From the NCBI GenBank assembly GCA_963663995.1, contig OY760660.1, positions 690,001 to 722,000 of the forward strand: a stretch of DNA of 32,000 nucleotides, in the 5' to 3' direction. Below are positions 5,194 to 20,907 of this stretch, one piece after another (within the stretch, counting starts at the first letter, position 1; every line of letters begins with the position of its first letter). The notes under the pieces were generated by a model that was given only the letters and a program-made list of their open reading frames with translations, was not told the DNA's origin and did no database searches. The translations under genes were made by a program, and so were the position numbers. The stretch comes from Erysipelotrichaceae bacterium (GTDB taxonomy: Bacteria; Bacillota_I; Bacilli_A; Erysipelotrichales; Erysipelotrichaceae).

Positions 5194-6480
5194 ATGAATG
5201 AATCACTCAGCAAAAAAGAGAAAATAGCTTTTGGCTTTGCTGGTCTTGGCCAAAACATGGTTTATAATTTCGCCACTGCTTATATCATGGTTTTTTATAC
5301 GGATGTTGTAAAATTACTTCCTTATGCAGTTGGGACCATGCTTTTAGTGGCTCGTTTCTTTGATGCAGTAAATGATCCTATAATGGGAATATTTGTTGAT
5401 CGAAGAAAAGGTGGACGAGAAAAACTTTTACCTTTTTTACGTGCTGTACCTATTCCGATGTTTATAGCTACGATGTTGTTATTTTTGATTCCCTTTGAAA
5501 GTATGGGAGCGCGCTTAATCTATGCTTATTTTAGTTTTATTTTATGGGACTTAGTTTATACCGTATCTGATATTCCATTTTGGGGATTGACAGTCTTAAT
5601 GACACCCCATTCAAAAGATCGTTTATCTTTACTGACTTATGCTCGCGTCCTCTCGAATGTTGGATTAGCGATATCAATCGTTATTCCACCATTAATGATT
5701 TCTTCTCTAGGATCAAATCACCGAGCTTATTTAATTACCGGCTTAATCATGGCTGGTATTGGTGTTCTCCTATTTTCTTCAGTTGGTTTTTTCGCAAAAG
5801 AGCGTGTTCATCCTGATAATAACAATCAAAAAGGCAGTCTATTATCCATCCTAAAAAATAAACCTTTAATGATTCTACAAAGTTCACGTTTACTCTCTGC
5901 TTTTAGAATGGTCCTAGCCACTTCTGGCTTATATTACGCTAAGTATAATTTAGGCGATGAAGCTCAATTCTCAATCATGGGCGGTTTATTAATCGCATCG
6001 ATGATTCTCGCCATGCTGATTACCCCACGCCTACGAAAAAATTACACTAAAAAAGCCCTTTACAATTTTTCTCTTGTTTTAGGCTTTATAGCTCATTTTA
6101 CTTTATATCTTATTGGTGATACATCAACGATTATCACCTATTCAATGCTCTTTATATCAGGTTTATCATTAGGTTTAGGCGATGTTATCTCTTATACCTT
6201 AGTTGGAGATAGTGTTGAGTATCATCATCAAAAAACAGGTATAAGACTTGAAGGCATGATCTTTGCGACCCATACCTTTACCACTAAACTTCAATCAGCT
6301 CTAGGTTTATTTACAATCGGTCTTGTTTTAAACTACAGTGGATTTATTGAGAATACCCTGCAAAATCCAAGTGCTCTAAATGGAATCTTTTCGCTAATTT
6401 CTCTATTACCAGCCATTGCTTGTTTACTGAGTTTAATACCTATGTTTTTCTTTAAACTTGACGATAACATTCACGCTTAA
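5194..6480 (+). CDS. Glycoside-pentoside-hexuronide (GPH) family cation symporter (MelB/YicJ/YihO-like MFS)
   Basis: About 12 TM segments. The GPH signature FFDAVNDPIMGIFVDRRKGGREKLLPF lies in the loop between TM2 and TM3. Confidence 0.85.
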   Translation: MNESLSKKEKIAFGFAGLGQNMVYNFATAYIMVFYTDVVKLLPYAVGTMLLVARFFDAVNDPIMGIFVDRRKGGREKLLPFLRAVPIPMFIATMLLFLIPFESMGARLIYAYFSFILWDLVYTVSDIPFWGLTVLMTPHSKDRLSLLTYARVLSNVGLAISIVIPPLMISSLGSNHRAYLITGLIMAGIGVLLFSSVGFFAKERVHPDNNNQKGSLLSILKNKPLMILQSSRLLSAFRMVLATSGLYYAKYNLGDEAQFSIMGGLLIASMILAMLITPRLRKNYTKKALYNFSLVLGFIAHFTLYLIGDTSTIITYSMLFISGLSLGLGDVISYTLVGDSVEYHHQKTGIRLEGMIFATHTFTTKLQSALGLFTIGLVLNYSGFIENTLQNPSALNGIFSLISLLPAIACLLSLIPMFFFKLDDNIHA

Positions 6481-7289
6481 AGCGACTTATTCATTTTCAA
6501 GATAAGTTGGGCAAATTCTGAAACCCCAGCTTTTTTTGCGTCTGAAACAATAATATCAGCGACTTCTTTAATAAAGTCATCAGCATTATCGACGGCTGCA
6601 CTATAACCGACTTCACTTAACATAATACGATCATTGACACTATCACCAATGGCCGCCACATGATCAATGCTATCTCCTTCCAGCTGAAGGATTTCTTGTA
6701 TACCACTAAGTTTGGAATGACCAAAAGGCATAACATCCATATAAGCATCACTAAATCGCTCACAATAAGCTTTATCATGATATTTACTGATAAAAGCATC
6801 TAAGAGTTCTGGATAATCATTATTTTCACGATGCAAACAAAGTTTTGGAAAAGGATTATGAACATTATTAAGTTCAGTAATTGGAGCCACCTTCATCTTA
6901 CAGTGATCTCTTTCATAAATAACAGAATGATCTAAATGAGAATAATAAAGAGTTTTATCTTGTTCTAAGGAGAAATGAAGTCCTAATCTTTTCGCTTCTT
7001 CAATATACTCACTCAAGTCTTCAACACTGTGATCATATTGGACAAAAGGTTTTAAATCACCGGCTCTTTGAACCATCGTTCCATTTCCACCGACTAAAAA
7101 ACCACCATATTTTTCTAAGTGAACTGCTTGTGCAACAACTTCAATTGCTGAAATGGTTCGACCAGAAGCCAAGATAAGTTTTACCCCAGATTCTTGTAAT
7201 GCAATTAAGGATTCTATGTTTTTAGGGTGTATCCCTACTTCAACATCAAACAAGGTGTGATCAATGTCGGTAACGAAATATTTATACAT
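6477..7289 (-). CDS. Cof-type HAD-IIB sugar phosphatase (YbiV/Cof-like)
   Basis: Motif I is VTDIDHTLF, motif II ILASGR, and motifs III/IV are K...GDSVNDRIML. The cap domain is of Cof-family length. Confidence 0.85.
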   Translation of the reverse strand: MYKYFVTDIDHTLFDVEVGIHPKNIESLIALQESGVKLILASGRTISAIEVVAQAVHLEKYGGFLVGGNGTMVQRAGDLKPFVQYDHSVEDLSEYIEEAKRLGLHFSLEQDKTLYYSHLDHSVIYERDHCKMKVAPITELNNVHNPFPKLCLHRENNDYPELLDAFISKYHDKAYCERFSDAYMDVMPFGHSKLSGIQEILQLEGDSIDHVAAIGDSVNDRIMLSEVGYSAAVDNADDFIKEVADIIVSDAKKAGVSEFAQLILKMNKSL

Positions 7290-7298
7290 ACAAGTGAT

Positions 7299-7307
7299 AT
7301 TTTAACA
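7299..7307 (-). promoter_or_regulatory. Extended -10 (TGTTAAAAT) 9 nt upstream of the HAD (6477-7289) ATG; leaderless-type
   Basis: The minus strand reads TGTTAAAAT-atcacttgt-ATG, with no SD. Confidence 0.5.
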
Positions 7308-7322
7308 TGAGTTAAAATCACA

Positions 7323-7331
7323 TGTTATAAT
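7323..7331 (+). promoter_or_regulatory. Extended -10 (TGTTATAAT) 7 nt upstream of the HAD (7339-8124) ATG; leaderless-type
   Basis: The plus strand reads TGTTATAAT-tttcatt-ATG, with no SD. It forms a back-to-back inverted pair with the 7299-7307 box. Confidence 0.55.
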
Positions 7332-7338
7332 TTTCATT

Positions 7339-8124
7339 ATGAAAAAATTACCAAAAACATTATTCTTTGATTTTGATGGTACAATCGTTGATCCGATTAG
7401 CCATACAGTACCCCAGACTGCTCTTGATGCCCTTCAAGAACTACACGATAAAGGCTATCACATTTGTATTGCCTCTGGCCGTGGTTATCCACTTTTAAAG
7501 GCAACTGGCATTATGCAACAATTCCCTTGGTCAGGTTATGTTTTAAATAACGGACAATTGATAAAAGATGAAAACGAAGAAACATTGATTCATCACTTTA
7601 TCGAACACGATGTTGTTTTAAAACTGATTGAAGAAGCAAATAAATTAGATTTAAATATTCAATTTGGCGCAAGCTCAGGTGACTTCATGAATAAAGAAGC
7701 AAACGATTATGTTAGAGCTGCTCATGAATTCTTCCATGAACCTATTTCACCAGTGGGTGAATATACAGGTCAATCTTGTGACAAGATTTTAGTCTACAAT
7801 GAAGTTGGTTATGATTATGCTCCTTTTAAAGCGATAAAAGGTCTAGCTGTTTTTCCAGCTAGAAGCTCCTATGCCGATTGTGCATGTGAAGGCATTTCTA
7901 AAGCAAGTGCCATCATTGAAATGTGTAAACATAAAGCTTGGGATGTTCATTATGCTGCCTTTGGAGATTCACACAATGATATGGAAATGTTACAAGGTGC
8001 AAGTTTAAAAGTAGCGATGGGTAATGGTGAAGAAGAACTTAAAGACATTGCTGATTATGTTGCCCCAAATGTTTGGGATGATGGACTAGCAAAAGTTTTA
8101 AAAGATATTGGTTATATTGACTAA
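7339..8124 (+). CDS. Cof-type HAD-IIB phosphatase
   Basis: Motif I is FFDFDGTIVD, motif II IASGRG, and motif IV FGDSHNDMEML. Confidence 0.85.
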   Translation: MKKLPKTLFFDFDGTIVDPISHTVPQTALDALQELHDKGYHICIASGRGYPLLKATGIMQQFPWSGYVLNNGQLIKDENEETLIHHFIEHDVVLKLIEEANKLDLNIQFGASSGDFMNKEANDYVRAAHEFFHEPISPVGEYTGQSCDKILVYNEVGYDYAPFKAIKGLAVFPARSSYADCACEGISKASAIIEMCKHKAWDVHYAAFGDSHNDMEMLQGASLKVAMGNGEEELKDIADYVAPNVWDDGLAKVLKDIGYID

Positions 8125-8152
8125 AAAGTTGGAATTATTTCCAACTTTTTTT
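8123..8152. terminator. Bidirectional rho-independent terminator shared by the HAD gene (+) and the GRE-aldolase operon (-)
   Basis: The stem AAAAAGTTGGAA/TTCCAACTTTTT (8123-8134/8139-8150) has a TTAT loop, with T-runs on both strands. Confidence 0.8.
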
Positions 8153-8831
8153 ATAGATCATTTAAACCTTTATTATCTCCATACATTGAATACCAGTCTT
8201 TATTGAAATCATTGACTGCTTTTTCAATATTTGGATTATCAAAGATATTTTTCAGTAAATCAACAGGTGCTGTTATGGCTTGTGCACCCGCATTGAAGGC
8301 ATCTTTGATTTGTTGATTATTCTTAAAACTAGCTGCCACAATCTTACAATCATAATCATCACTGGCGATTCGATATGATAAATGATCGATTAAATCATAA
8401 GGATCTGTACCTAAATTACTCATCCGATTTACATAGGGGGCAATATAATCTGCTCCAGCTGCTAAGGCAAGATAAGCTTGCATTAAATCATAGACAGCAG
8501 TAGCTGTTACTTTATAACCTTTTTCTTTTAAAGTTTTAATGGCTTTTAAACCAACCATATTTACTGGAATTTTGATATAAACTTGCTTATCCACTTCTTG
8601 GTGAATTTTTTTTGCTTCCGCTAAAATACCTTCATAATCTTTCGCAATTACTTGAATATGTAAACTACGATCTTTACCAATGATTTCTCTTATTTCACGC
8701 ATATGCGCATAGAAATCTTTGGGAGACACTTTTTTTACGATACTTGGATTAGAAGTAACACCCACAATTGGTAAATACTCAACCGCTTCTCTTATTTCAT
8801 CTAAATTTATGGTATCAATAATAAATTCCAT
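8151..8831 (-). CDS. fsa: Fructose-6-phosphate-aldolase-type (FSA/TalC subfamily) class I aldolase
   Basis: It aligns by eye with E. coli FsaA: GVTSNPSI; a Schiff-base Lys in YIKIPV (K87); IQV (Q60) in place of the transaldolase Glu; APYVNRM (Y133) in place of the transaldolase SPFxGR Phe. An AGGAGG SD overlaps the GRE stop. Confidence 0.85.
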   Translation of the reverse strand: MEFIIDTINLDEIREAVEYLPIVGVTSNPSIVKKVSPKDFYAHMREIREIIGKDRSLHIQVIAKDYEGILAEAKKIHQEVDKQVYIKIPVNMVGLKAIKTLKEKGYKVTATAVYDLMQAYLALAAGADYIAPYVNRMSNLGTDPYDLIDHLSYRIASDDYDCKIVAASFKNNQQIKDAFNAGAQAITAPVDLLKNIFDNPNIEKAVNDFNKDWYSMYGDNKGLNDL

Positions 8832-8839
8832 AAAACCTC

Positions 8840-11251
8840 CTAAATACTTTGTTCTGTTCTTTCAATGATATCATCTTGTGTTGCTTTTGATAAAACATTG
8901 AAGAAAGCAGAATATCCAGCCACCCGAACAATTAAATCACGGTGTTTTTCAGGATGATTTTGAGCATCAATTAAGGTTTCGCGAGAAACGACATTGTATT
9001 GCACATGATAACCTTTTAATCGATTAAAGAATGTACGAATTAACATTTCTAATTTAAGTTTATTCTCATCAGTGGATAACATTTGTGGTGTCACTTTTTG
9101 GTTTAATAAAACACCACCTGTTATTTCATGTGTTGGTAATTTAGAAACTGTTTTAAAAACAGCTGTGGGACCCGATTTATCCATTGAATGAGCTGGTGAG
9201 CAACCTTCAGCTAGCGGTGACCTTCCTTTTCTTCCATCAGGTGTTGCTTTCGTTTTTAAACCTTGTCCTACATTGGCTGAGATAGATGATGTTCCTGCAT
9301 AGCGGATTCCACCAATCGGACCACGATTATGGCGTGTGTTAGGGTATTTCTTCATTTCTGAAATATAGGAATCGTACGCATCAACGACTAATTGATCTAC
9401 ATAATCATTGTCATTTCCATATTTCGGTGATTCCATGATTAACATTTGTTGAATTTTTTGAGACTTTTCAGATGTAAAATCATCTTCTAAAGCAGCCCAT
9501 AATTCTTCTGTTGTGATTTTTTCTTGTTCAAAGACTAATTTCTTAATGGCGGCTAAGCTATCCGCTGTATTGGCAATTCCTACTTGTAATCCTGAGATAA
9601 AGTCATAAATCGCTCCACCCTCTTTAATCGATTTACCACGACCAATACAATCTTGAGTTAAGGTTGAACATAAAATATCAGGTACTGAACGCTCTAATGC
9701 TAAATCAACAGTATTTTCAACAATCACTGACATACGTGTTAATTCACGTACCGTTTTATCCCAAGCATCCGCTAATTCTTCATAAGAAGACATGTCCGTA
9801 AAGTGGCCATATCCTTTAGTAAAACGTTTTCCACTTGTCACATCAATCCCATTATTCATCGTGATTAAAAGAATACGTGGGAAGTTCATATAACTCATAC
9901 CGGTACAACGATATCCCCATTTCCCTGGAACCGCTGTTTCAACACAACCAATCGCTGAATAATTATAGGCATCTTCTTCAGAAACCCCTAAATTTATAAA
10001 AGAAGGAATAATAATTTCATCACTATTAAAGGCCGGCATACCGGTTCCAAGTTTCATAACTTCGATACATTCATTCATAAATTTTTGGTCTAAACCTGCA
10101 TAATAGCGAACGGTTAAATTAGGTTGAGGTAAGCGAGTTTGAGCAACTGATTTTAAAACTAAGTAGGATAGCGCATTTACAGCATCTTTTTTATCACTTG
10201 TTTGCCCACCAATTGTGACATTTTGATATAGGGGAGATCCAGCACTTGAATAGGTGTGTGCTTGACTTCTAACTTTATTAATTGTGTATGTTTTAATCCA
10301 AAGATTTGTTAAATATTCTACCGCTTCATCTTCTTCAATAATCCCTCTTTCAAAATCTGCTTTGTAATAAGGATAAATATATTGATCAAATCGTCCATAG
10401 GATAAGGAGTGTCCATTTGATTCTATTTGCAGAATTAATTGAATAAACCAAGTAGCTTGGATAGCTTCTTTAAAAGAACTCGCTGGATAATAAGGTACTT
10501 TCTCACAGATATCAGCCATCTCTAATAATTCTACTTTACGTTTATCCTCTGCCGTTTTCGCTAAATCTTTCGCTAATGTAGCATAACGATGAGCGAAATT
10601 TTGAACCGCATCAATCGTAATTAAAACAGAACGATAGAAATGATATTTATCAATATTTTCAGGTATGGTTAAATCTAAATCTTCTTTTAATTTTAAAGTT
10701 CTTTCTTCATAGCCTTTTAAACCTAATTTAAGCATTGATTCATAATCGACCGCTAAGTGGGCATCCCCTGAGTTTAATTTACCTTCCATGCCAAAGAAAC
10801 CCGTTTCCATAAAGACAGAAACTTCATCAGGTAACATCGCTCCACCTTTAGCACGTAAGTTATTATTCTCCCAAAAGTCAGCAATAGATCGTAAATCTTC
10901 TTTAGCTTTCTCTGTAATATAGAAAACATCACCATCACGTTTTTCAAATAAATCAAGTTCTTTAATAACAAACTCTAACGTATACTCAGGAAAAATAGGT
11001 GCATCTTTATTTGACTCCGCTTGGTTCCCTACAATTAAAGTTTCATCTTCAATATAAATTGTCATTTTATCTAAGATGTTCTTAAGCATTAAAGCTCTTT
11101 GAATAACAACCGGTTGATTCTTAGTTTCTTTGTAAGACTCTGTTACCAGTAGTGCTCTTTCAGCACTAATATAAGGTTTCTTTTCCAAAACAGCTTCACG
11201 ATAATCATTCATACGTTGACTTAAAGATCCGAAATATGCATCATTTTTCAT
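8840..11251 (-). CDS. Glycyl radical enzyme, dehydratase/eliminase class (PFL2/YbiW/PflD-like), 803 aa
   Basis: The C-terminal glycyl radical motif is LIVRVAGYSAFF (G779, codon 8915-8917). The thiyl loop has a single Cys, AIGCVETAV (C436/E438, 9938-9949), not the CC pair of true pyruvate formate-lyase. A GGAG SD is present. Confidence 0.9.
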   Translation of the reverse strand: MKNDAYFGSLSQRMNDYREAVLEKKPYISAERALLVTESYKETKNQPVVIQRALMLKNILDKMTIYIEDETLIVGNQAESNKDAPIFPEYTLEFVIKELDLFEKRDGDVFYITEKAKEDLRSIADFWENNNLRAKGGAMLPDEVSVFMETGFFGMEGKLNSGDAHLAVDYESMLKLGLKGYEERTLKLKEDLDLTIPENIDKYHFYRSVLITIDAVQNFAHRYATLAKDLAKTAEDKRKVELLEMADICEKVPYYPASSFKEAIQATWFIQLILQIESNGHSLSYGRFDQYIYPYYKADFERGIIEEDEAVEYLTNLWIKTYTINKVRSQAHTYSSAGSPLYQNVTIGGQTSDKKDAVNALSYLVLKSVAQTRLPQPNLTVRYYAGLDQKFMNECIEVMKLGTGMPAFNSDEIIIPSFINLGVSEEDAYNYSAIGCVETAVPGKWGYRCTGMSYMNFPRILLITMNNGIDVTSGKRFTKGYGHFTDMSSYEELADAWDKTVRELTRMSVIVENTVDLALERSVPDILCSTLTQDCIGRGKSIKEGGAIYDFISGLQVGIANTADSLAAIKKLVFEQEKITTEELWAALEDDFTSEKSQKIQQMLIMESPKYGNDNDYVDQLVVDAYDSYISEMKKYPNTRHNRGPIGGIRYAGTSSISANVGQGLKTKATPDGRKGRSPLAEGCSPAHSMDKSGPTAVFKTVSKLPTHEITGGVLLNQKVTPQMLSTDENKLKLEMLIRTFFNRLKGYHVQYNVVSRETLIDAQNHPEKHRDLIVRVAGYSAFFNVLSKATQDDIIERTEQSI

Positions 11252-11269
11252 AAAATAAACTCCTTTTTA

Positions 11270-11281
11270 TTTCATTTGAAA
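11270..11281. promoter_or_regulatory. Palindrome TTTCAttTGAAA, candidate DeoR operator in the GRE/activase divergent region
   Basis: 5-bp inverted arms with a 2-bp spacer lie 19 nt upstream of the GRE ATG. The same 12-mer occurs at 13112-13123. Confidence 0.45.
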
Positions 11282-11341
11282 CTTTTTAATGTTTCTTTTA
11301 CAAGTTTAGTCTATAATATTTAAGAAATATGTCAATAAATA

Positions 11342-11369
11342 TTTCATATGAAAGTATATTAACTTTCAT
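11342..11369. promoter_or_regulatory. Composite inverted repeats TTTCAtaTGAAAGT-atatta-ACTTTCAT, candidate operator overlapping the activase promoter -35 region
   Basis: TTTCA-N2-TGAAA (11342-11353) is joined to an 8-bp arm palindrome ATGAAAGT/ACTTTCAT (11348-11355/11362-11369). Confidence 0.45.
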
Positions 11370-11377
11370 TAAGACAA

Positions 11378-11386
11378 TGTTATGAT
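11378..11386 (+). promoter_or_regulatory. Possible extended -10 (TGTTATGAT) for the activase gene
   Basis: TGTTATGAT overlaps the ATGATG at 11382. This placement would exclude the 11382 start and favour ATG 11406. Confidence 0.35.
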
Positions 11387-11405
11387 GAGAAAGAGAAATA
11401 AGCAA

Positions 11406-12302
11406 ATGGAAAAAGGTGTCATTTTCAATATCCAAAAATTTAGTATTCATGATGGTCCAGGAATAAGAACGACCGTATTTTTAAAAGGCTGTCCTTTAAA
11501 ATGTGAATGGTGTTCCAATCCTGAATCACAAGAATTTTCAGTTCAAATCCTTTGGGATGATAGAAAATGTGATAAACAGCTAAAATGCATGAGTGTCTGT
11601 GAAGATAAATCGATTAATCTTGTAAATAATCAAATACTCATTAATCCACAACTTTGTACTCTTTGCGATAAATGCATTAAAGCTTGTCCTAATCAAGCCT
11701 TAAGTTTAAGTGGTGAAACAAAAGAAGTTGAAGATATTGTCAATATTTGTCTACAAGATAAAGATTTCTATGAAGAATCAGAGGGTGGTGTCACTATTTC
11801 AGGTGGTGAAGGAATGTCACAAGCTGAGTTTTTAAAAGATCTTGTCGCTAGGTTAAAAAAAGAAAAGATACATCTAGCCATTGAAACAACTGGTTTTGTG
11901 CAAACCGAAGTATTTAAAGATTTATCCAATCGTTTTGATCTATTACTTTTTGATATGAAACATCATGATTCTACTCAACATAAAAAATATACTGGTGTAA
12001 ACAATGAACTGATCATTCAAAATTTAAGGTATGCTATTCAAAATAATATCAATACATTAGTCAGAATCCCTGTGATCCCTGATGTGAATAATAGTCTTGA
12101 TGATGCTGAAAAATTTTCTAAACTCTTAAATAAAATCGGTGTGCAACGAGTTCAACTTTTACCCTTTCATCAATTTGGGGAAAAGAAATATGATATGTTA
12201 AATCGTGAATATCAGCTCAAAGAAAAAAAAGCCCTCTATCCAGAAGACTTAAAAGATTATCAAAGGATCTTTATCAAACATCAAATTGACTGTTTCTTTT
12301 AA
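11406..12302 (+). CDS. Glycyl radical enzyme activating enzyme (radical SAM) with an inserted 2x[4Fe-4S] ferredoxin-like domain
   Basis: It contains FSIHDGPGIRT, the radical-SAM motif CPLKCEWC (11490-11513), and extra Cys motifs CDKQLKCMSVC and CTLCDKCIKACP. The ORF is open from 11382; I prefer MEKGVIFNIQKF at 11406. Confidence 0.9.
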   Translation: MEKGVIFNIQKFSIHDGPGIRTTVFLKGCPLKCEWCSNPESQEFSVQILWDDRKCDKQLKCMSVCEDKSINLVNNQILINPQLCTLCDKCIKACPNQALSLSGETKEVEDIVNICLQDKDFYEESEGGVTISGGEGMSQAEFLKDLVARLKKEKIHLAIETTGFVQTEVFKDLSNRFDLLLFDMKHHDSTQHKKYTGVNNELIIQNLRYAIQNNINTLVRIPVIPDVNNSLDDAEKFSKLLNKIGVQRVQLLPFHQFGEKKYDMLNREYQLKEKKALYPEDLKDYQRIFIKHQIDCFF

Positions 12303-13063
12303 CTAAGACTTACTTTAATCCCACGATTTTCGAGGGATTTTTTAATTTCATCATCCATTTCAAAATCAGTCACGACTTCGAAGATTCTCTCTGTCTTTAT
12401 GAGTGGAACAACACCACTTTGTTTAAATTTTATCGAATCAGTCACAACAATAACTTTATTTGCTTGCTCAGCCATATCGCGAACGGCTTCAGCACGCATT
12501 AAATCATTTCCAGTAAATCCTATTCTATCTGAGTACCCATCGGTCCCAACAAACAATTTATCAACAAAGAAATTACTAGCACAACGCTTCGTCATCGGAC
12601 CAACCATTACCTGTGCTTCATTTTGATATTCCCCACCAAGGAGTACAATCTTACTTTGATTTACTTTTCTTATAAAATCAGCGACAAAAGCAGAGTTTGT
12701 AATAATCGTAATATCCTTTCGATTAATCGCTAGTTCTAAAGCCACAAGTGCACAGGAAGAACCAGACTCAATCATCACAGTTTCTCCATCCTTTACTGAT
12801 TCAATGGCTTTCTTAGCAATCTTTAACTTTTTATCATAATGATAGGCTAAGCGTGTATTAATATCGTCTTTAGCGTTTAATGTCGCAAATCCATGTTCTC
12901 TTTTAATTAAACCTTTCTCTTCAAGTTGAATTAAATCCTTACGAATAGTAACTTGGGAAACATTAAAAGCTAGTGCTAATTCAGATACATCCACTTTCTT
13001 CTTATCTGTAATCATTTCTAATATTTGTGTATGACGTGTTTCAAGTTTTTTCATCTTAAGCAT
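12299..13063 (-). CDS. DeoR-family transcriptional regulator (N-terminal wHTH plus C-terminal sugar-phosphate-binding DeoR-C domain)
   Basis: The HTH region is VDVSELALAFNVSQVTIRKDLIQLEEKGLIKREHGFA. The C-domain contains ESGSSC...ITNS...LLGGEY...FVGTDG. The start is ambiguous (13063 MLKMKK or 13054 MKKLETRH); the ORF-track start at 13117 lies inside a hairpin. Confidence 0.85.
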   Translation of the reverse strand: MLKMKKLETRHTQILEMITDKKKVDVSELALAFNVSQVTIRKDLIQLEEKGLIKREHGFATLNAKDDINTRLAYHYDKKLKIAKKAIESVKDGETVMIESGSSCALVALELAINRKDITIITNSAFVADFIRKVNQSKIVLLGGEYQNEAQVMVGPMTKRCASNFFVDKLFVGTDGYSDRIGFTGNDLMRAEAVRDMAEQANKVIVVTDSIKFKQSGVVPLIKTERIFEVVTDFEMDDEIKKSLENRGIKVSLS

Positions 13064-13090
13064 AGAATAAACTAAAAAACTTTCATTTAC

Positions 13091-13137
13091 AATAAAAATA
13101 ACTTTCGAATGTTTCATTTGAAATCTTTTCGAAAGTT
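13091..13137 (-). promoter_or_regulatory. Nested palindrome AACTTTCGAA-tg-TTTCATTTGAAA-tctt-TTCGAAAGTT followed by a T-run: operator and/or intrinsic attenuator between the 566-aa gene and deoR
   Basis: 10-bp outer arms (13100-13109/13128-13137) enclose the 12-bp core shared with 11270-11281. On the minus strand the hairpin is followed by ATTTTTATT. An extra TTTCATTT lies at 13081-13088. Confidence 0.5.
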
Positions 13138-13161
13138 ATTTAGTTTATATTTTTTTAAAAC

Positions 13162-14862
13162 TTATTTTGAATTAATTAAAGTTTCAAGTAAGGCAGTCGC
13201 TGTAATTTCTAAGTGATTCTTAGCCGCATCTTTAACACCAAGACCTGAGTAAACTTCACCAACTTTAACATTTGATGCATCTAATGCTTCAAAGTACTTG
13301 TCGATAAGTGGATTACAAGTGTCTTGATCTTGCATAGGTCCAAATGGGTTTGCAAAGTAAGTTACAGATATACCTGATTCATGTGTTGTTGCCATAGCCA
13401 TACGTTTACCGTTAACGAATGTGTCTTTAATTTCTTTAGCACTATCAACAATCTTAACACCTGTTGTATTTTCATAGTTATTCGCATAGAAGAAATAATG
13501 TACAGGATGTGAAGTTGAAATTGTTTCGTAAGTTGAAACAGGAATGATAACACGAGCATTAGTACGTTCTGGATTCATAAAGATTGAACGGTCCATTGTT
13601 TTATATGGGGTACCATTGTCTAAGTCATCTAAACGGATAAAGGCTCCAATTTCAGTTCCTTGGGCAACTACTTTACCATTTTCTAGTTGGAAAGTCCCCA
13701 TATCATCAAAGATAATATCGAAACCTAGTAGTTCTTCATGACCTAATAATTGCATGGCTTCGATCGTTTCTGATTTACCAGCACCACTATCGCCCATGAA
13801 ACAAACACCGATTGGATCACGTCCTTTTAAGTGAACATTGATCATTGCACCGTGAATTGGTAACCAACCACGTTCCATAACAATTGCATTGTGCATTGTT
13901 AACATCATTTTCTTCATGTATCCAAAGTATGAAATCTTTTCACTATAAGCTACTTTTGCAGTCCAGATATCGTTGGCTTTATCGTGGTAATACGTTGTTT
14001 CATCACTACCATCGTTGTAACCAAATATAAGGATACCATCTACTTTTTTCGTTAAGATTTCTTCTTTAGTCGCAAGTTCAAATAAGTTAGCATTTGAAAT
14101 ACCAGAGAAGGAGAAGTCTTTATTGACATAAGCGTAGATTAGTAATTGTCCAACTTTTGCAGGATAAACAAAGTAATCATCTTTGCTAATGGTTAAATCA
14201 GCGATTGGGTTATCTTTTACAAGTTGGAAAGAACCAAAACGTTTCGTTCCTTTTGGTCTTAAAATTAATGGAGCACGAACTAACATTTGATCAATAAACG
14301 GAACGCCTTTTAGATATTCATAACCCGTTGGTATTTTCCATTTAATATCACGTAAAACCATCGAAGCGTTAGTACCAGCTTGAAGTTGGCGATAAACGCG
14401 ATTCTTGCTTCCTTGTAATTTTTCTTGAATACTGCGGTATAAACTTAAAACAGTCGCGTTATAACGAGTATCCATTTCAACAAAGTTATCGGCATGACCA
14501 CTCATTGAAGTCGAAACTTTTAAAACTGATACACGTGACAAGTTACGCCAAGCGTTATAAGCATCTTCAACAATTGTGATTAATTTCTTTGGTTCTTTAG
14601 CTAATGGATGATCAATTTCATCTAGATCAAGTACAAGTAATAATTTGAGTAGTCGAACTAAACCAACAATAGCTTTACTTTGACTTTGACCTTCTAATAA
14701 CCAAGTGTATTTATTTTTATCTGTAGCCTTCAAACCATCTAAATATGTATTTAGAAAAGTTTTAAAACTTTCGTGCGACAAGATCTCATCAGCATCTTTT
14801 GGGAAGAATGCAGAGAAGTTAATTATCGCTGTATCATCGTGAATGTATAATGCATCTTTCAT
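13162..14862 (-). CDS. Uncharacterised 566-aa protein with a PEP-carboxykinase/HPr-kinase-fold nucleotide-binding domain (candidate novel kinase)
   Basis: Ordered motifs in the C-terminal half: LPIHGAMINV (H337); P-loop FMGDSGAGKSE (G357-E365, 13768-13794); IIFDDMGTF (D386-D387); GTEIGAFIRL; ERTNARVIIP (R437). These parallel the PEPCK-ATP motifs MHCSANV / GLSGTGKTT / LIGDDEHGW / FEGGCYAK / ENTRVSYP, and the HprK GxSGxGKSE motif. An AAGAGG SD is present. Confidence 0.6.
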   Translation of the reverse strand: MKDALYIHDDTAIINFSAFFPKDADEILSHESFKTFLNTYLDGLKATDKNKYTWLLEGQSQSKAIVGLVRLLKLLLVLDLDEIDHPLAKEPKKLITIVEDAYNAWRNLSRVSVLKVSTSMSGHADNFVEMDTRYNATVLSLYRSIQEKLQGSKNRVYRQLQAGTNASMVLRDIKWKIPTGYEYLKGVPFIDQMLVRAPLILRPKGTKRFGSFQLVKDNPIADLTISKDDYFVYPAKVGQLLIYAYVNKDFSFSGISNANLFELATKEEILTKKVDGILIFGYNDGSDETTYYHDKANDIWTAKVAYSEKISYFGYMKKMMLTMHNAIVMERGWLPIHGAMINVHLKGRDPIGVCFMGDSGAGKSETIEAMQLLGHEELLGFDIIFDDMGTFQLENGKVVAQGTEIGAFIRLDDLDNGTPYKTMDRSIFMNPERTNARVIIPVSTYETISTSHPVHYFFYANNYENTTGVKIVDSAKEIKDTFVNGKRMAMATTHESGISVTYFANPFGPMQDQDTCNPLIDKYFEALDASNVKVGEVYSGLGVKDAAKNHLEITATALLETLINSK

Positions 14863-14913
14863 AGTAAACCTCTTTCTTTCAGTTCAGAGTTCATAATATC
14901 AAATATCTTAATA

Positions 14914-14968
14914 AAATGAAACAATTTTATGTAATAAAATGTAAATAAATAATGTAAATAAATGAAAC
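14914..14968 (-). promoter_or_regulatory. Promoter/operator region of the 566-aa gene, with two direct GTTTCATTT half-sites
   Basis: The minus strand carries TTGTTTCATTT at plus coordinates 14914-14922 and 14960-14968, the same half-site as the TTTCATTTGAAA operators. A TATTAT -10 candidate lies downstream. Confidence 0.4.
14938..14963. repeat. Perfect tandem duplication of a 13-mer (AATGTAAATAAAT x2)
   Basis: Read directly: 14938-14950 equals 14951-14963. Confidence 0.9.
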
Positions 14969-14994
14969 AAAACTCAAGACATTGCTTGAGTTTT
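14961..14994 (-). terminator. Rho-independent terminator of engB, overlapping its stop codon
   Basis: The stem AAAACTCAAG/CTTGAGTTTT (14969-14978/14985-14994) has a 6-nt loop and is followed on the minus strand by TTTTGTTT. Confidence 0.7.
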
Positions 14995-15564
14995 TATAAA
15001 TTTCTTAATCCAAGCTTCAATTTCGTCTAAACCACTTTTATCAAGTGATGAGAAGATGATCACTGGGTGAACATACTGAGCTTTTAATTCTTTTTCAGCT
15101 TTTAATTTTTGTGAGTAAGTTAACTTATCACTTTTTGTCGCAACCAAGAGTAGTGGATAACCAGCTTCTTCAACAAAGGCTAACATGTCTTCATCATCTT
15201 CTGAAAGTGGATGACGTACATCAATCACTTGAATAACTGCCATAATTTGCTCTCTCTCAGAAAAGTAATCTTCCATCAGTTTTCCATAAGCTAAGAGTTC
15301 TGAGCGTGAACGCTTGGCATACCCATAGCCAGGCACATCCACAAACATCACTTGATGAGGGACTTCATAGAAGTTGATATAACGTGTTTTCCCTGGTCTT
15401 TTACCAACATAGGCTAAAGCTTTCTGACGCGTAATTGAATTGATCAATGATGATTTACCAACATTTGATCGTCCAGCTAAAACCAATTCAGGAAGTTCAG
15501 ATTCTGGGAATTGTTCTTTTCGTACTGCCGTTGTGACAAAGCTAGCACTTTGAAATAGAGCCAT
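14974..15564 (-). CDS. engB: Ribosome biogenesis GTPase EngB/YsxC
   Basis: G1 motif GRSNVGKSS, G3 motif DVPGYG, G4 motif TKSDK. It sits after lon, as in Bacillus. Confidence 0.9.
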   Translation of the reverse strand: MALFQSASFVTTAVRKEQFPESELPELVLAGRSNVGKSSLINSITRQKALAYVGKRPGKTRYINFYEVPHQVMFVDVPGYGYAKRSRSELLAYGKLMEDYFSEREQIMAVIQVIDVRHPLSEDDEDMLAFVEEAGYPLLLVATKSDKLTYSQKLKAEKELKAQYVHPVIIFSSLDKSGLDEIEAWIKKFIKTQAMS

Positions 15565-19970: not shown

Positions 19971-20003
19971 CAACACTTCTTTATGTGTGATGTCTTTTCT
20001 TCG

Positions 20004-20012
20004 TGTTAAAAT
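20004..20012 (+). promoter_or_regulatory. Extended -10 (TGTTAAAAT) 7 nt upstream of the ATG at 20020; leaderless-type
   Basis: The plus strand reads TGTTAAAAT-ttgtgta-ATG. This supports the internal start MKAIIFIV. Confidence 0.5.
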
Positions 20013-20019
20013 TTGTGTA

Positions 20020-20907
20020 ATGAAAGCAATAATATTTATAGTCGGCTTAGCCTTAGCGGCTGGTGGACTCACCTTATCCATTATAGGATTCACTCAAATC
20101 GATAGCTTAGATGTCACAATGCTTGGTCTTTATTTAGGTGGATCATTTCTATTGATGACGATTGGTCTTTATATGATGTTAGTTGTCTTTATGAAAAAGA
20201 AGAAAACAGATGACACAGATGAGAAAGAAAGCATTGAAGAAGTTCTCTTAGATTTAGATGAAGACGAAGACTTAGACACTGAGATATTAGAAATGAGTGA
20301 ACCTACTTCAATGATTGAAGATACGATGGTTCTTAATCTATTTGAAAAAGAAAAAGATGCACCAGTAGAAGAAGAAATGATGAAAAGTGATGATTCATCT
20401 ATTGAAGAAACAAGTGATGCCATTGAATCAGTCGATGATTTAGACATTGAAGATGAGTTTGTAGAAGAAGTCATTGAACTTGATGAAGAACCTGAATTAA
20501 TTGAAGAAGTGTCAGAAGATATTGAAAAAATCAATAATGAAGTTACAGAAGAAGAAAACTTAGATCAAACGCTTGTCTCAGATGAGATTGTCATTAACTC
20601 ACAAGAACCTGTACTAAATGCTAGCTTTGTTGAAGCTCGATTAATCGGGATTGAAGGATTTAAATCTCAGAGAATCTTAAAGAAACTTAGTGAGGGTACA
20701 GAACTTACCTTAAGAGAAAACCAAAAACATGGTTTAAAATCTTGTGAGATTTTCTATCAAAATAAATCGATTGGTTACTTATCAAAAGTTGACTACAATA
20801 AAATGGCGGATAAACTCAATCAAGTTTATAAGATTACAATTTCAACCTTTGTCTATGAAAATAATAAGGTTGCGACTGTAATGCTTAGTTTCATGTTTAA
20901 ACAATAA
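20020..20907 (+). CDS. Membrane-anchored protein: 2 TM helices, an acidic disordered linker of about 130 aa, and a C-terminal HIRAN-like domain (tentative)
   Basis: The TM segments are IIFIVGLALAAGGLTLSIIGF and LGLYLGGSFLLMTIGLYMMLVVF. A D/E-rich tract spans about 20200-20580. The C-terminus LIGIEGF...GTELTLRENQKHGLKSCEIFYQNKSIGYLSK loosely follows the HIRAN pattern but lacks the NPYD motif. Confidence 0.6.
   Translation: MKAIIFIVGLALAAGGLTLSIIGFTQIDSLDVTMLGLYLGGSFLLMTIGLYMMLVVFMKKKKTDDTDEKESIEEVLLDLDEDEDLDTEILEMSEPTSMIEDTMVLNLFEKEKDAPVEEEMMKSDDSSIEETSDAIESVDDLDIEDEFVEEVIELDEEPELIEEVSEDIEKINNEVTEEENLDQTLVSDEIVINSQEPVLNASFVEARLIGIEGFKSQRILKKLSEGTELTLRENQKHGLKSCEIFYQNKSIGYLSKVDYNKMADKLNQVYKITISTFVYENNKVATVMLSFMFKQ

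Follow-up and report, generated by a model that had tools for sequence, protein, structure and literature searches.

An orphan member of the PEP-carboxykinase/HPr-kinase superfamily, very unlikely to be the missing kinase of the adjacent glycyl radical enzyme pathway, in an Erysipelotrichaceae genome

A 32,000-nucleotide stretch of the genome of an Erysipelotrichaceae bacterium (GenBank assembly GCA_963663995.1, contig OY760660.1, positions 690,001 to 722,000), here called the window and used for all position numbers unless another locus is named, encodes a 566-amino-acid protein whose open reading frame (ORF), in the ORF listing at 13162..14862, lies on the minus strand and reads 14862→13162. 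This gene and its product are designated T. On one side T is flanked by engB (14974-15564) and on the other by a DeoR-family gene (12299-13117), beyond which lie genes for a glycyl radical enzyme (GRE) activase, a GRE, an FSA aldolase, two Cof-type HAD-IIB phosphatases, and a GPH symporter. An earlier reading of this DNA, made from the letters and their translations (the sequence-only reading), had recognized in T the motifs of the phosphoenolpyruvate (PEP) carboxykinase (PEPCK) and HprK fold and had proposed that it is the missing kinase of the GRE pathway. The structural half of that proposal stands: T falls in an unnamed family of the PEP-carboxykinase/HPr-kinase P-loop superfamily and is nearer overall to PEPCK than to HprK/P. 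The functional half does not: that T supplies the missing kinase activity of the GRE pathway is very unlikely. Rather, it is an orphan, stand-alone gene beside a cassette that only this genome and one sister carry at this position, and its product probably works on its own as a phosphotransferase that depends on Mg/Mn and a nucleotide, uses PEPCK-type chemistry, and has an anionic small-molecule substrate. The ORF that had been described is real, its strand being supplied here, and its position just upstream of the DeoR gene was given correctly.

T comprises a core (residues ~253-566) and a family-specific N-terminal module (residues 1-~260). Over its C-terminal ~310 residues T is homologous to the ATP-dependent PEPCK catalytic core. 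An AlphaFold2 model built on a 14-sequence alignment (predicted local distance difference test score, pLDDT, 82; predicted template modelling score, pTM, 0.84) was compared with the PDB using Foldseek, and the best 50 matches were all PEPCKs, ATP-type enzymes first and then GTP-type enzymes (best E 2.7e-13; 380-460 aligned columns; template modelling (TM) scores 0.41-0.45). Similarly, hhalign aligned the T family profile with Escherichia coli Pck with a probability of 94% (E 1.5e-7) over 246 columns (T253-508 / Pck144-410). Structure and profile comparisons of this kind had been suggested along with the proposal, and both found the PEPCK fold. Curated models register the relationship below their thresholds in every case, with T scoring 21.4 bits against PF01293 (PEPCK_ATP; cut-off 26.5) and 15.7 bits against TIGR00224 (cut-off 590). 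Of the family members tested, 14/14 gave sub-threshold matches to PEPCK_ATP, 12/14 to HprK, and 13/14 to DUF4914, while sequence-only searches of the PDB with the T protein and with the family profile returned only insignificant P-loop matches.

The four motifs that had been named, in PEPCK order, are all present where they had been placed, and all of them, like the features described next, are encoded on the minus strand. IHGAM (residues 336-340) and the P-loop FMGDSGAGKSE (355-365, with K363 as the P-loop lysine) span 13768..13857 and are supported by hhalign and by invariance in the family; IIFDDMG (383-389; 13696..13716) carries D386/D387, by motif logic the probable kinase-2 Asp pair (Pck D268/D269); and TNARVIIP (434-441; 13540..13563) supplies N435, R437, and P441, which hhalign pairs with N331, R333, and P337 of Pck. 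To these can be added a fifth motif, YFGYMKK (312-318; 13909..13929), which was not part of the earlier description, is invariant down to ~30% identity, and is the most PEPCK-specific of the five. It is equivalent to the PEPCK pattern Y207-x-G209-x-M-K212-K213, which in E. coli Pck reads Y207-G-G-E-M-K212-K213, and hhalign accordingly pairs Y312 with Y207, G314 with G209, K317 with K212, and K318 with K213; further pairs are H337 with H232, S359 with S250, K363 with K254, and S364 with T255. In PEPCK, K213, H232, and D269 bind Mn2+ and T255 binds Mg2+, and K212, K254, R333, Y207, and S250 bind the transferred phosphoryl group or the substrate. The T residues Y312, K317, K318, H337, S359, K363, S364, D386/D387, and R437 are all invariant in the T family, and the key residues are kept down to ~30% identity across 87 near-full-length representatives. 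Likewise, 'ATTHExG...FANPFG' of T aligns with 'AGTERG...FSACFG', the omega-loop lid of Pck. Two invariant, family-specific loops lie within 13336..13596: MDRSIFMNP (423-431; family form MDRSIF[MF]NP) and YFANPFGP (502-509; family form [YF]FANPFGP). Both fall in low-pLDDT segments of the model (414-435 and 488-510), the latter aligns with the mobile omega-loop lid of PEPCK (Pck 386-410), and together they are probably substrate-binding, mobile segments.

Although the core shares its fold, its motif order, and its lid with ATP-dependent PEPCK (PckA; PF01293; PDB 1AQ2, 1YVY, 1J3B), T departs from that enzyme at several points. Its P-loop ends in GKSE whereas that of PEPCK ends in GKTT, 23 residues separate the P-loop lysine from the Asp pair as compared with 14 in PEPCK, and the two invariant loops noted above are additional. 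The largest difference lies in the N-terminal ~260 residues, for which no solved structure offers a relative: modelled separately (residues 1-262; pLDDT 80), this part had no match in the PDB (best E 0.11; TM ~0.1), which bears out the earlier statement that this part of the protein resembles nothing recognized. The oxaloacetate/CO2 motif TGRSPKDK, the R65 motif of PEPCK, is absent from T when the sequence is read directly, and only a permissive, low-confidence alignment (T139-564 / Pck30-464; probability 82%) extends into this region. The module carries five arginines (R106, R110, R143, R158, and R208; 14239..14547) that are kept down to ~30% identity and whose clustering suggests an anionic substrate.

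The family to which T belongs comprises more than 3,600 clusters at 90% identity, almost all of ~566 residues and unnamed, and occurs in at least 577 species-level genomes, mainly those of Erysipelotrichales, Mogibacterium, and other Bacillota, where its neighborhoods are variable and consist mostly of housekeeping genes. A profile search with the family against 1.84 billion representatives recovered only 686 clusters; because the profile did not draw in the far larger PEPCK family, the T family is considered separate from PEPCK proper. Cluster names are uninformative or inconsistent ('hypothetical', 'PEPCK (ATP)', 'EcfA2'), and a literature search on DUF4914, 'PEPCK-like', 'carboxykinase-like', and Erysipelotrichaceae together with PEPCK found nothing on the family. 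The uncharacterized P-loop family DUF4914 (PF16260), which is named in no paper of the library searched, shares weak matches in the same P-loop region of T family members (best E 5.3e-6). However, T itself reaches only 13.4 bits against a gathering score of 25.7, and its family is therefore at most a sister of DUF4914.

Comparison of ortholog neighborhoods indicates that T is independent of the cassette that it adjoins. That cassette (8151..13117, mixed strands), which is not part of T, consists of the DeoR gene (12299-13117, minus strand), the activase gene (11382-12302, plus strand), the GRE gene (8840-11251, minus strand), and the FSA gene (8151-8831, minus strand). The GRE is a clear ortholog of YbiW (PDB 8ID7; E 3.4e-256) and is thus assigned as a 1,5-anhydroglucitol-6-phosphate C-O-cleaving isomerase, the activity of YbiW, whose substrate must be phosphorylated (PMC13450708). 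With its YbiW ortholog, activase, FSA, and DeoR, the cassette resembles the E. coli YbiW/PflD 'anhydroglycolysis' loci (GRE isomerase, activase, and FSA aldolase, fed by a phosphotransferase system, PTS). T is not a component of this system. When cassette genes were sought within 10 kb of a T ortholog in 80 genome loci, GRE, activase, FSA, and DeoR were found at a single locus (1/80; L005), that of a sister metagenome-assembled genome whose T is 88% identical to T of the window. Conversely, in 80 metagenomic loci (L082-L161) with a GRE 76-83% identical to that of the window, DeoR (62 loci), activase (66), and FSA (37) accompanied the GRE, many contigs ending early, and T was present in 0/80. 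The sequence-only reading had proposed this co-occurrence comparison and had counted a lack of association between T homologs and GRE loci against its own proposal; apart from the sister locus, no association was found in either direction.

The same conclusion emerges from the closest relatives. The next-closest T orthologs, at 72, 70, and 67% identity (L172, L173, and L174), lie in loci that are perfectly collinear with the window (Tig-Lon-EngB-T-HAD(-)-HAD(+)-GPH(-)-RadC-MreC-MreD) except that they lack DeoR-activase-GRE-FSA. In these three loci only 25-38 bp, holding a terminator, separate T from the first HAD gene, and the cassette is consequently regarded as an indel of ~5 kb between T and the HAD gene. 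In L173 an unrelated 289-aa radical-SAM gene is inserted at the position of the cassette, between T and the first HAD gene, suggesting that this is an insertion hot spot. The two HAD-IIB genes (7339-8124, plus strand and converging on T; and 6477-7289, minus strand) and the GPH symporter gene (5194-6480, plus strand) are chromosomal neighbors of T and not cassette genes, since they flank T in relatives with or without the cassette. This also weakens the earlier view of the symporter as the importer serving the GRE locus. The GC content of cassette and flanks is uniform (0.30-0.38) and uninformative with regard to horizontal transfer.

Predicted transcription signals (all of those described here are predictions) likewise separate T from the cassette. 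The claim that T shares operator half-sites with the GRE and activase promoters did not survive: the octamer TTTCATTT occurs 8 times in the window where 8.6 copies are expected, i.e., at chance frequency. The copies upstream of T were rejected as DeoR half-sites on this ground, and also because one of the two is not kept in the sister genome and because they lack the palindromic form kept across cassettes. That form is the 12-bp palindrome TTTCANNTGAAA (TTTCA-NN-TGAAA), which has 3 exact copies in the window as compared with 0.33 expected, two between activase and GRE (11270-11281 and 11342-11353) and one upstream of DeoR (13112-13123). None lies upstream of T, either in the window or in L005. 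Across 58 related cassettes (848 kb), 60/64 copies fall in the activase-GRE intergenic region and 51/58 loci have at least one copy, and TTTCANNTGAAA is thus likely the DeoR operator of YbiW-type cassettes. T, in turn, has a Shine-Dalgarno sequence of its own (AAGAGG, 14869..14874, minus strand, 6 nt before the ATG), as had been noted previously, and a putative promoter of its own, with a candidate extended -10 element recognized by its match to the consensus (TGATATTAT, 14893..14901, minus strand) that recurs (TGATATAAT) upstream of T orthologs in genomes without the cassette. Behind engB, a hairpin resembling a terminator (14969..14994, minus strand) parts T from the Tig-Lon-EngB genes that precede it. 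A second hairpin, with a 14-bp stem and a U-run (13096..13141, minus strand; fold -16.9 kcal/mol, z -6.3), lies between the stop codon of T and the DeoR gene; it is kept in L005, holds a DeoR-type operator palindrome in its loop, and is probably the terminator of T.

What T does can be proposed from its conserved site and, to a lesser degree, from its surroundings. T would transfer a phosphoryl group to or from a small anionic molecule in a reaction that depends on Mg/Mn and a nucleotide. The chemistry probably resembles that of PEPCK, with an alpha-keto-acid enolate or a PEP-type compound as the substrate. Because the N-terminal half of the cleft has been replaced, oxaloacetate bound in the canonical manner is unlikely to be that substrate. 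The role of T would be constitutive and unrelated to anhydroglucitol catabolism. A more specific reading, held tentatively and at somewhat less than even chance, is that the family represents a new activity on the PEPCK scaffold, in which a complete PEPCK-type bimetal phosphotransfer site is joined to a novel, arginine-rich N-terminal substrate module. The substrate would then not be oxaloacetate but, for instance, the enolate of a different alpha-keto acid or a metabolite that is phosphorylated or polyanionic, and the gene would be conserved for a constitutive role in Erysipelotrichales, Mogibacterium, and other Bacillota.

Genomic context offers weak, thin, but recurrent hints of alpha-keto-acid/PEP chemistry. 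In 3 Merdibacter loci enolase lies directly downstream of T, an AspC/TyrB-like aminotransferase gene overlaps the start of a 31%-identical family member, and a DmpG-like pyruvate aldolase gene is directly upstream of a 28%-identical one. One fusion with an aminotransferase domain among distant representatives is a further weak hint; a fusion of a T homolog with SAICAR synthetase was set aside as a probable gene-calling artifact. Elsewhere, T follows two U32 peptidase genes and a SpoU methyltransferase or ProRS gene (~32 loci), or EngB, a MerR regulator, or an SPFH protein, and the distant members sampled stand apart from their neighbors or follow an AspC/TyrB-like aminotransferase or a GFO/IDH/MocA oxidoreductase.

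Several observations weigh against these proposals. No equivalent of R65 was located in T, and the adenine-contact residues of PEPCK are not conserved in the low-confidence C-terminal alignment; for these two reasons the phosphoryl donor (ATP, GTP, or PPi) is left unassigned. The register of the Asp pair is ambiguous, as hhalign sets D386/D387 six residues off, onto D274/D275 of Pck. The P-loop GDSGAGKSE and the helix that follows it are more like those of HprK/P and are compatible with a protein substrate. Finally, the contextual hints each come from a single lineage and no consistent operon partner accompanies T across the ortholog neighborhoods compared, such that any particular substrate is a guess.

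Two other readings draw on the same core. T could be a genuine, extremely divergent PEPCK that interconverts oxaloacetate and NTP with PEP, NDP, and CO2 at the PEP-oxaloacetate node of Erysipelotrichales and their relatives. Every catalytic-core residue of ATP-PEPCK is kept, including Y207 and R333, which contact substrate or CO2; the permissive alignment would carry the homology into the N-terminal region; enolase and aspartate-type aminotransferase genes are neighbors in some lineages; and some databases label homologs as PEPCK. Yet PEPCK draws R65 and half of its oxaloacetate/CO2 pocket from an N-terminal domain that has no recognizable counterpart in T, TGRSPKDK is missing, family-specific invariant loops replace PEPCK segments, the TIGR00224 score is far below the equivalog threshold, and the five invariant arginines suggest a different and more anionic ligand, all of which makes a true PEPCK a rather unlikely, though not negligible, outcome. 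It is less probable still that T is a serine kinase/phosphorylase acting on a protein or peptide in the manner of HprK/P (PF07475; PDB 1JB1, 1KKL). The superfamily is the same, the preceding His, the P-loop, and the next helix are nearly identical (IHGAM...GDSGAGKSE of T aligns with MHGVLV...GDSGVGKSE of 1JB1), an Asp pair follows, weak Hpr_kinase_C matches occur in most members as stated above, and translation or housekeeping genes often adjoin T. HprK/P, however, is a two-domain protein of ~310 residues that phosphorylates a protein, whereas T has 566 residues, scores only 15.6 bits against Hpr_kinase_C (PF07475; cut-off 33.3) and 17.2 against TIGR00679 (cut-off 240), and keeps PEPCK-only, small-molecule motifs on both sides of its P-loop (YxGxMKK, NxRVxxP, and the omega-loop lid); the likeness to PEPCK is also both longer and stronger, in the profile alignment and in the structure search alike.

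The two remaining readings tie T to its neighbors. In the first, that of the sequence-only reading, T would be a dedicated kinase making 1,5-anhydroglucitol-6-phosphate or another sugar phosphate for the GRE, or would process hydroxyacetone. T does adjoin the cassette in the window and in L005, its fold is of a kinase type, and a YbiW ortholog needs a phosphorylated substrate (PMC13450708). The stated lack of ROK, FGGY, PfkB, and GHMP sugar kinases was also confirmed for the nine locus proteins scanned (5194-15564, T included) with Pfam and NCBIfam models (E <= 0.01, and up to 1 for Pfam). But the assumed need for a dedicated kinase is itself weakly founded: the 80 related GRE cassettes, whose settings vary (ArgRS, cardiolipin synthase, FeoB, and a PFOR-like pair), all lack a PTS or sugar kinase of their own beside them. 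YbiW-type cassettes presumably receive their phosphorylated substrate from systems whose genes lie elsewhere in the genome. The bacterial anhydroglucitol pathway is stated to begin with phosphorylation by a PTS, and 1,5-anhydroglucitol to be a side substrate of general glucose-phosphorylating enzymes (PMC12441222). The comparative data weigh most heavily: 79/80 ortholog loci lack a GRE, all 80 GRE loci lack T, and the cassette is missing from the collinear relatives at 67-72% identity. T is also outside the cassette's operator set and is parted from the cassette by a terminator-like hairpin, and hydroxyacetone is plausibly handled in some cassettes by an iron-containing alcohol dehydrogenase encoded after FSA. 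No sugar kinase is known to have a PEPCK fold, which likewise counts against this role, and the proposal is regarded as close to refuted. In the second, the partners of T would be the GPH symporter and both Cof-type HAD phosphatases, and the substrate a glycoside or sugar brought in from outside. The order T-HAD-HAD-GPH is indeed kept in about a dozen related loci (55-88% identity), whether the cassette is there or not. This role is nevertheless highly improbable, as a bidirectional terminator lies where T and the first HAD gene converge, the association is lost in ~65 more distant loci in a manner consistent with synteny by descent, and T has no similarity to any sugar-kinase family.

Additional features of the window and of related loci deserve mention. 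The iron-containing alcohol dehydrogenase gene (Pfam Fe-ADH) lies right after FSA in L096, L097, L148, and L154, and its product is a plausible candidate for a hydroxyacetone reductase acting on the C3 product. A bidirectional terminator hairpin (AAAAAGTTGGAAATAATTCCAACTTTTT, 8125-8150) lies between the convergent FSA and HAD genes of the window, at the position occupied in relatives by the T-HAD terminator. The DeoR ORF is 272 aa long and its helix-turn-helix domain begins at residue 28, so that translation probably starts at M19 or M22 and not at the first ATG; the 5' extension of this ORF (13054-13117) overlaps the operator and the terminator-like hairpin. Upstream of T (14914-14967) are two direct copies of TTGTTTCATTT, 46 bp apart, of which only the promoter-proximal copy is kept in the sister genome and neither in relatives at ~62% identity. 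Farther along the window, an ORF of 306 aa (19987-20907) encodes an N-terminal membrane segment followed by a long, very acidic (D/E-rich), low-complexity middle. A T-like subfamily at 28% identity (L162, 6357-9710 of that locus; also L163 and L164) lacks the N-terminal arginine cluster. In L162 the T-like gene begins 31 bp after the gene for a DmpG/HMGL-like pyruvate aldolase, inside a polysaccharide-biosynthesis cluster that encodes an NTP-transferase, dehydratase/epimerases, DegT aminotransferases, and glycosyltransferases, and subfamily members of this type may be involved in making an unusual sugar acid.

As a bystander to the anhydroglucitol GRE pathway, T means that this locus reveals no new way to phosphorylate anhydro-sugars; the cassette itself is a compact, apparently self-contained DeoR-activase-YbiW-FSA unit with a well-defined 12-bp operator. 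If the T family does represent a new activity on the PEPCK scaffold, it would constitute a third functional class of the superfamily beside PEPCK and HprK/P. No curated model names the family, and with its wide conservation, its occurrence in common gut and oral Firmicutes, its intact active site, and its new substrate-binding half, T is a reasonable target for enzyme discovery. Identifying its substrate could close a gap in Erysipelotrichales metabolism and would broaden the known functions of the PEPCK fold.

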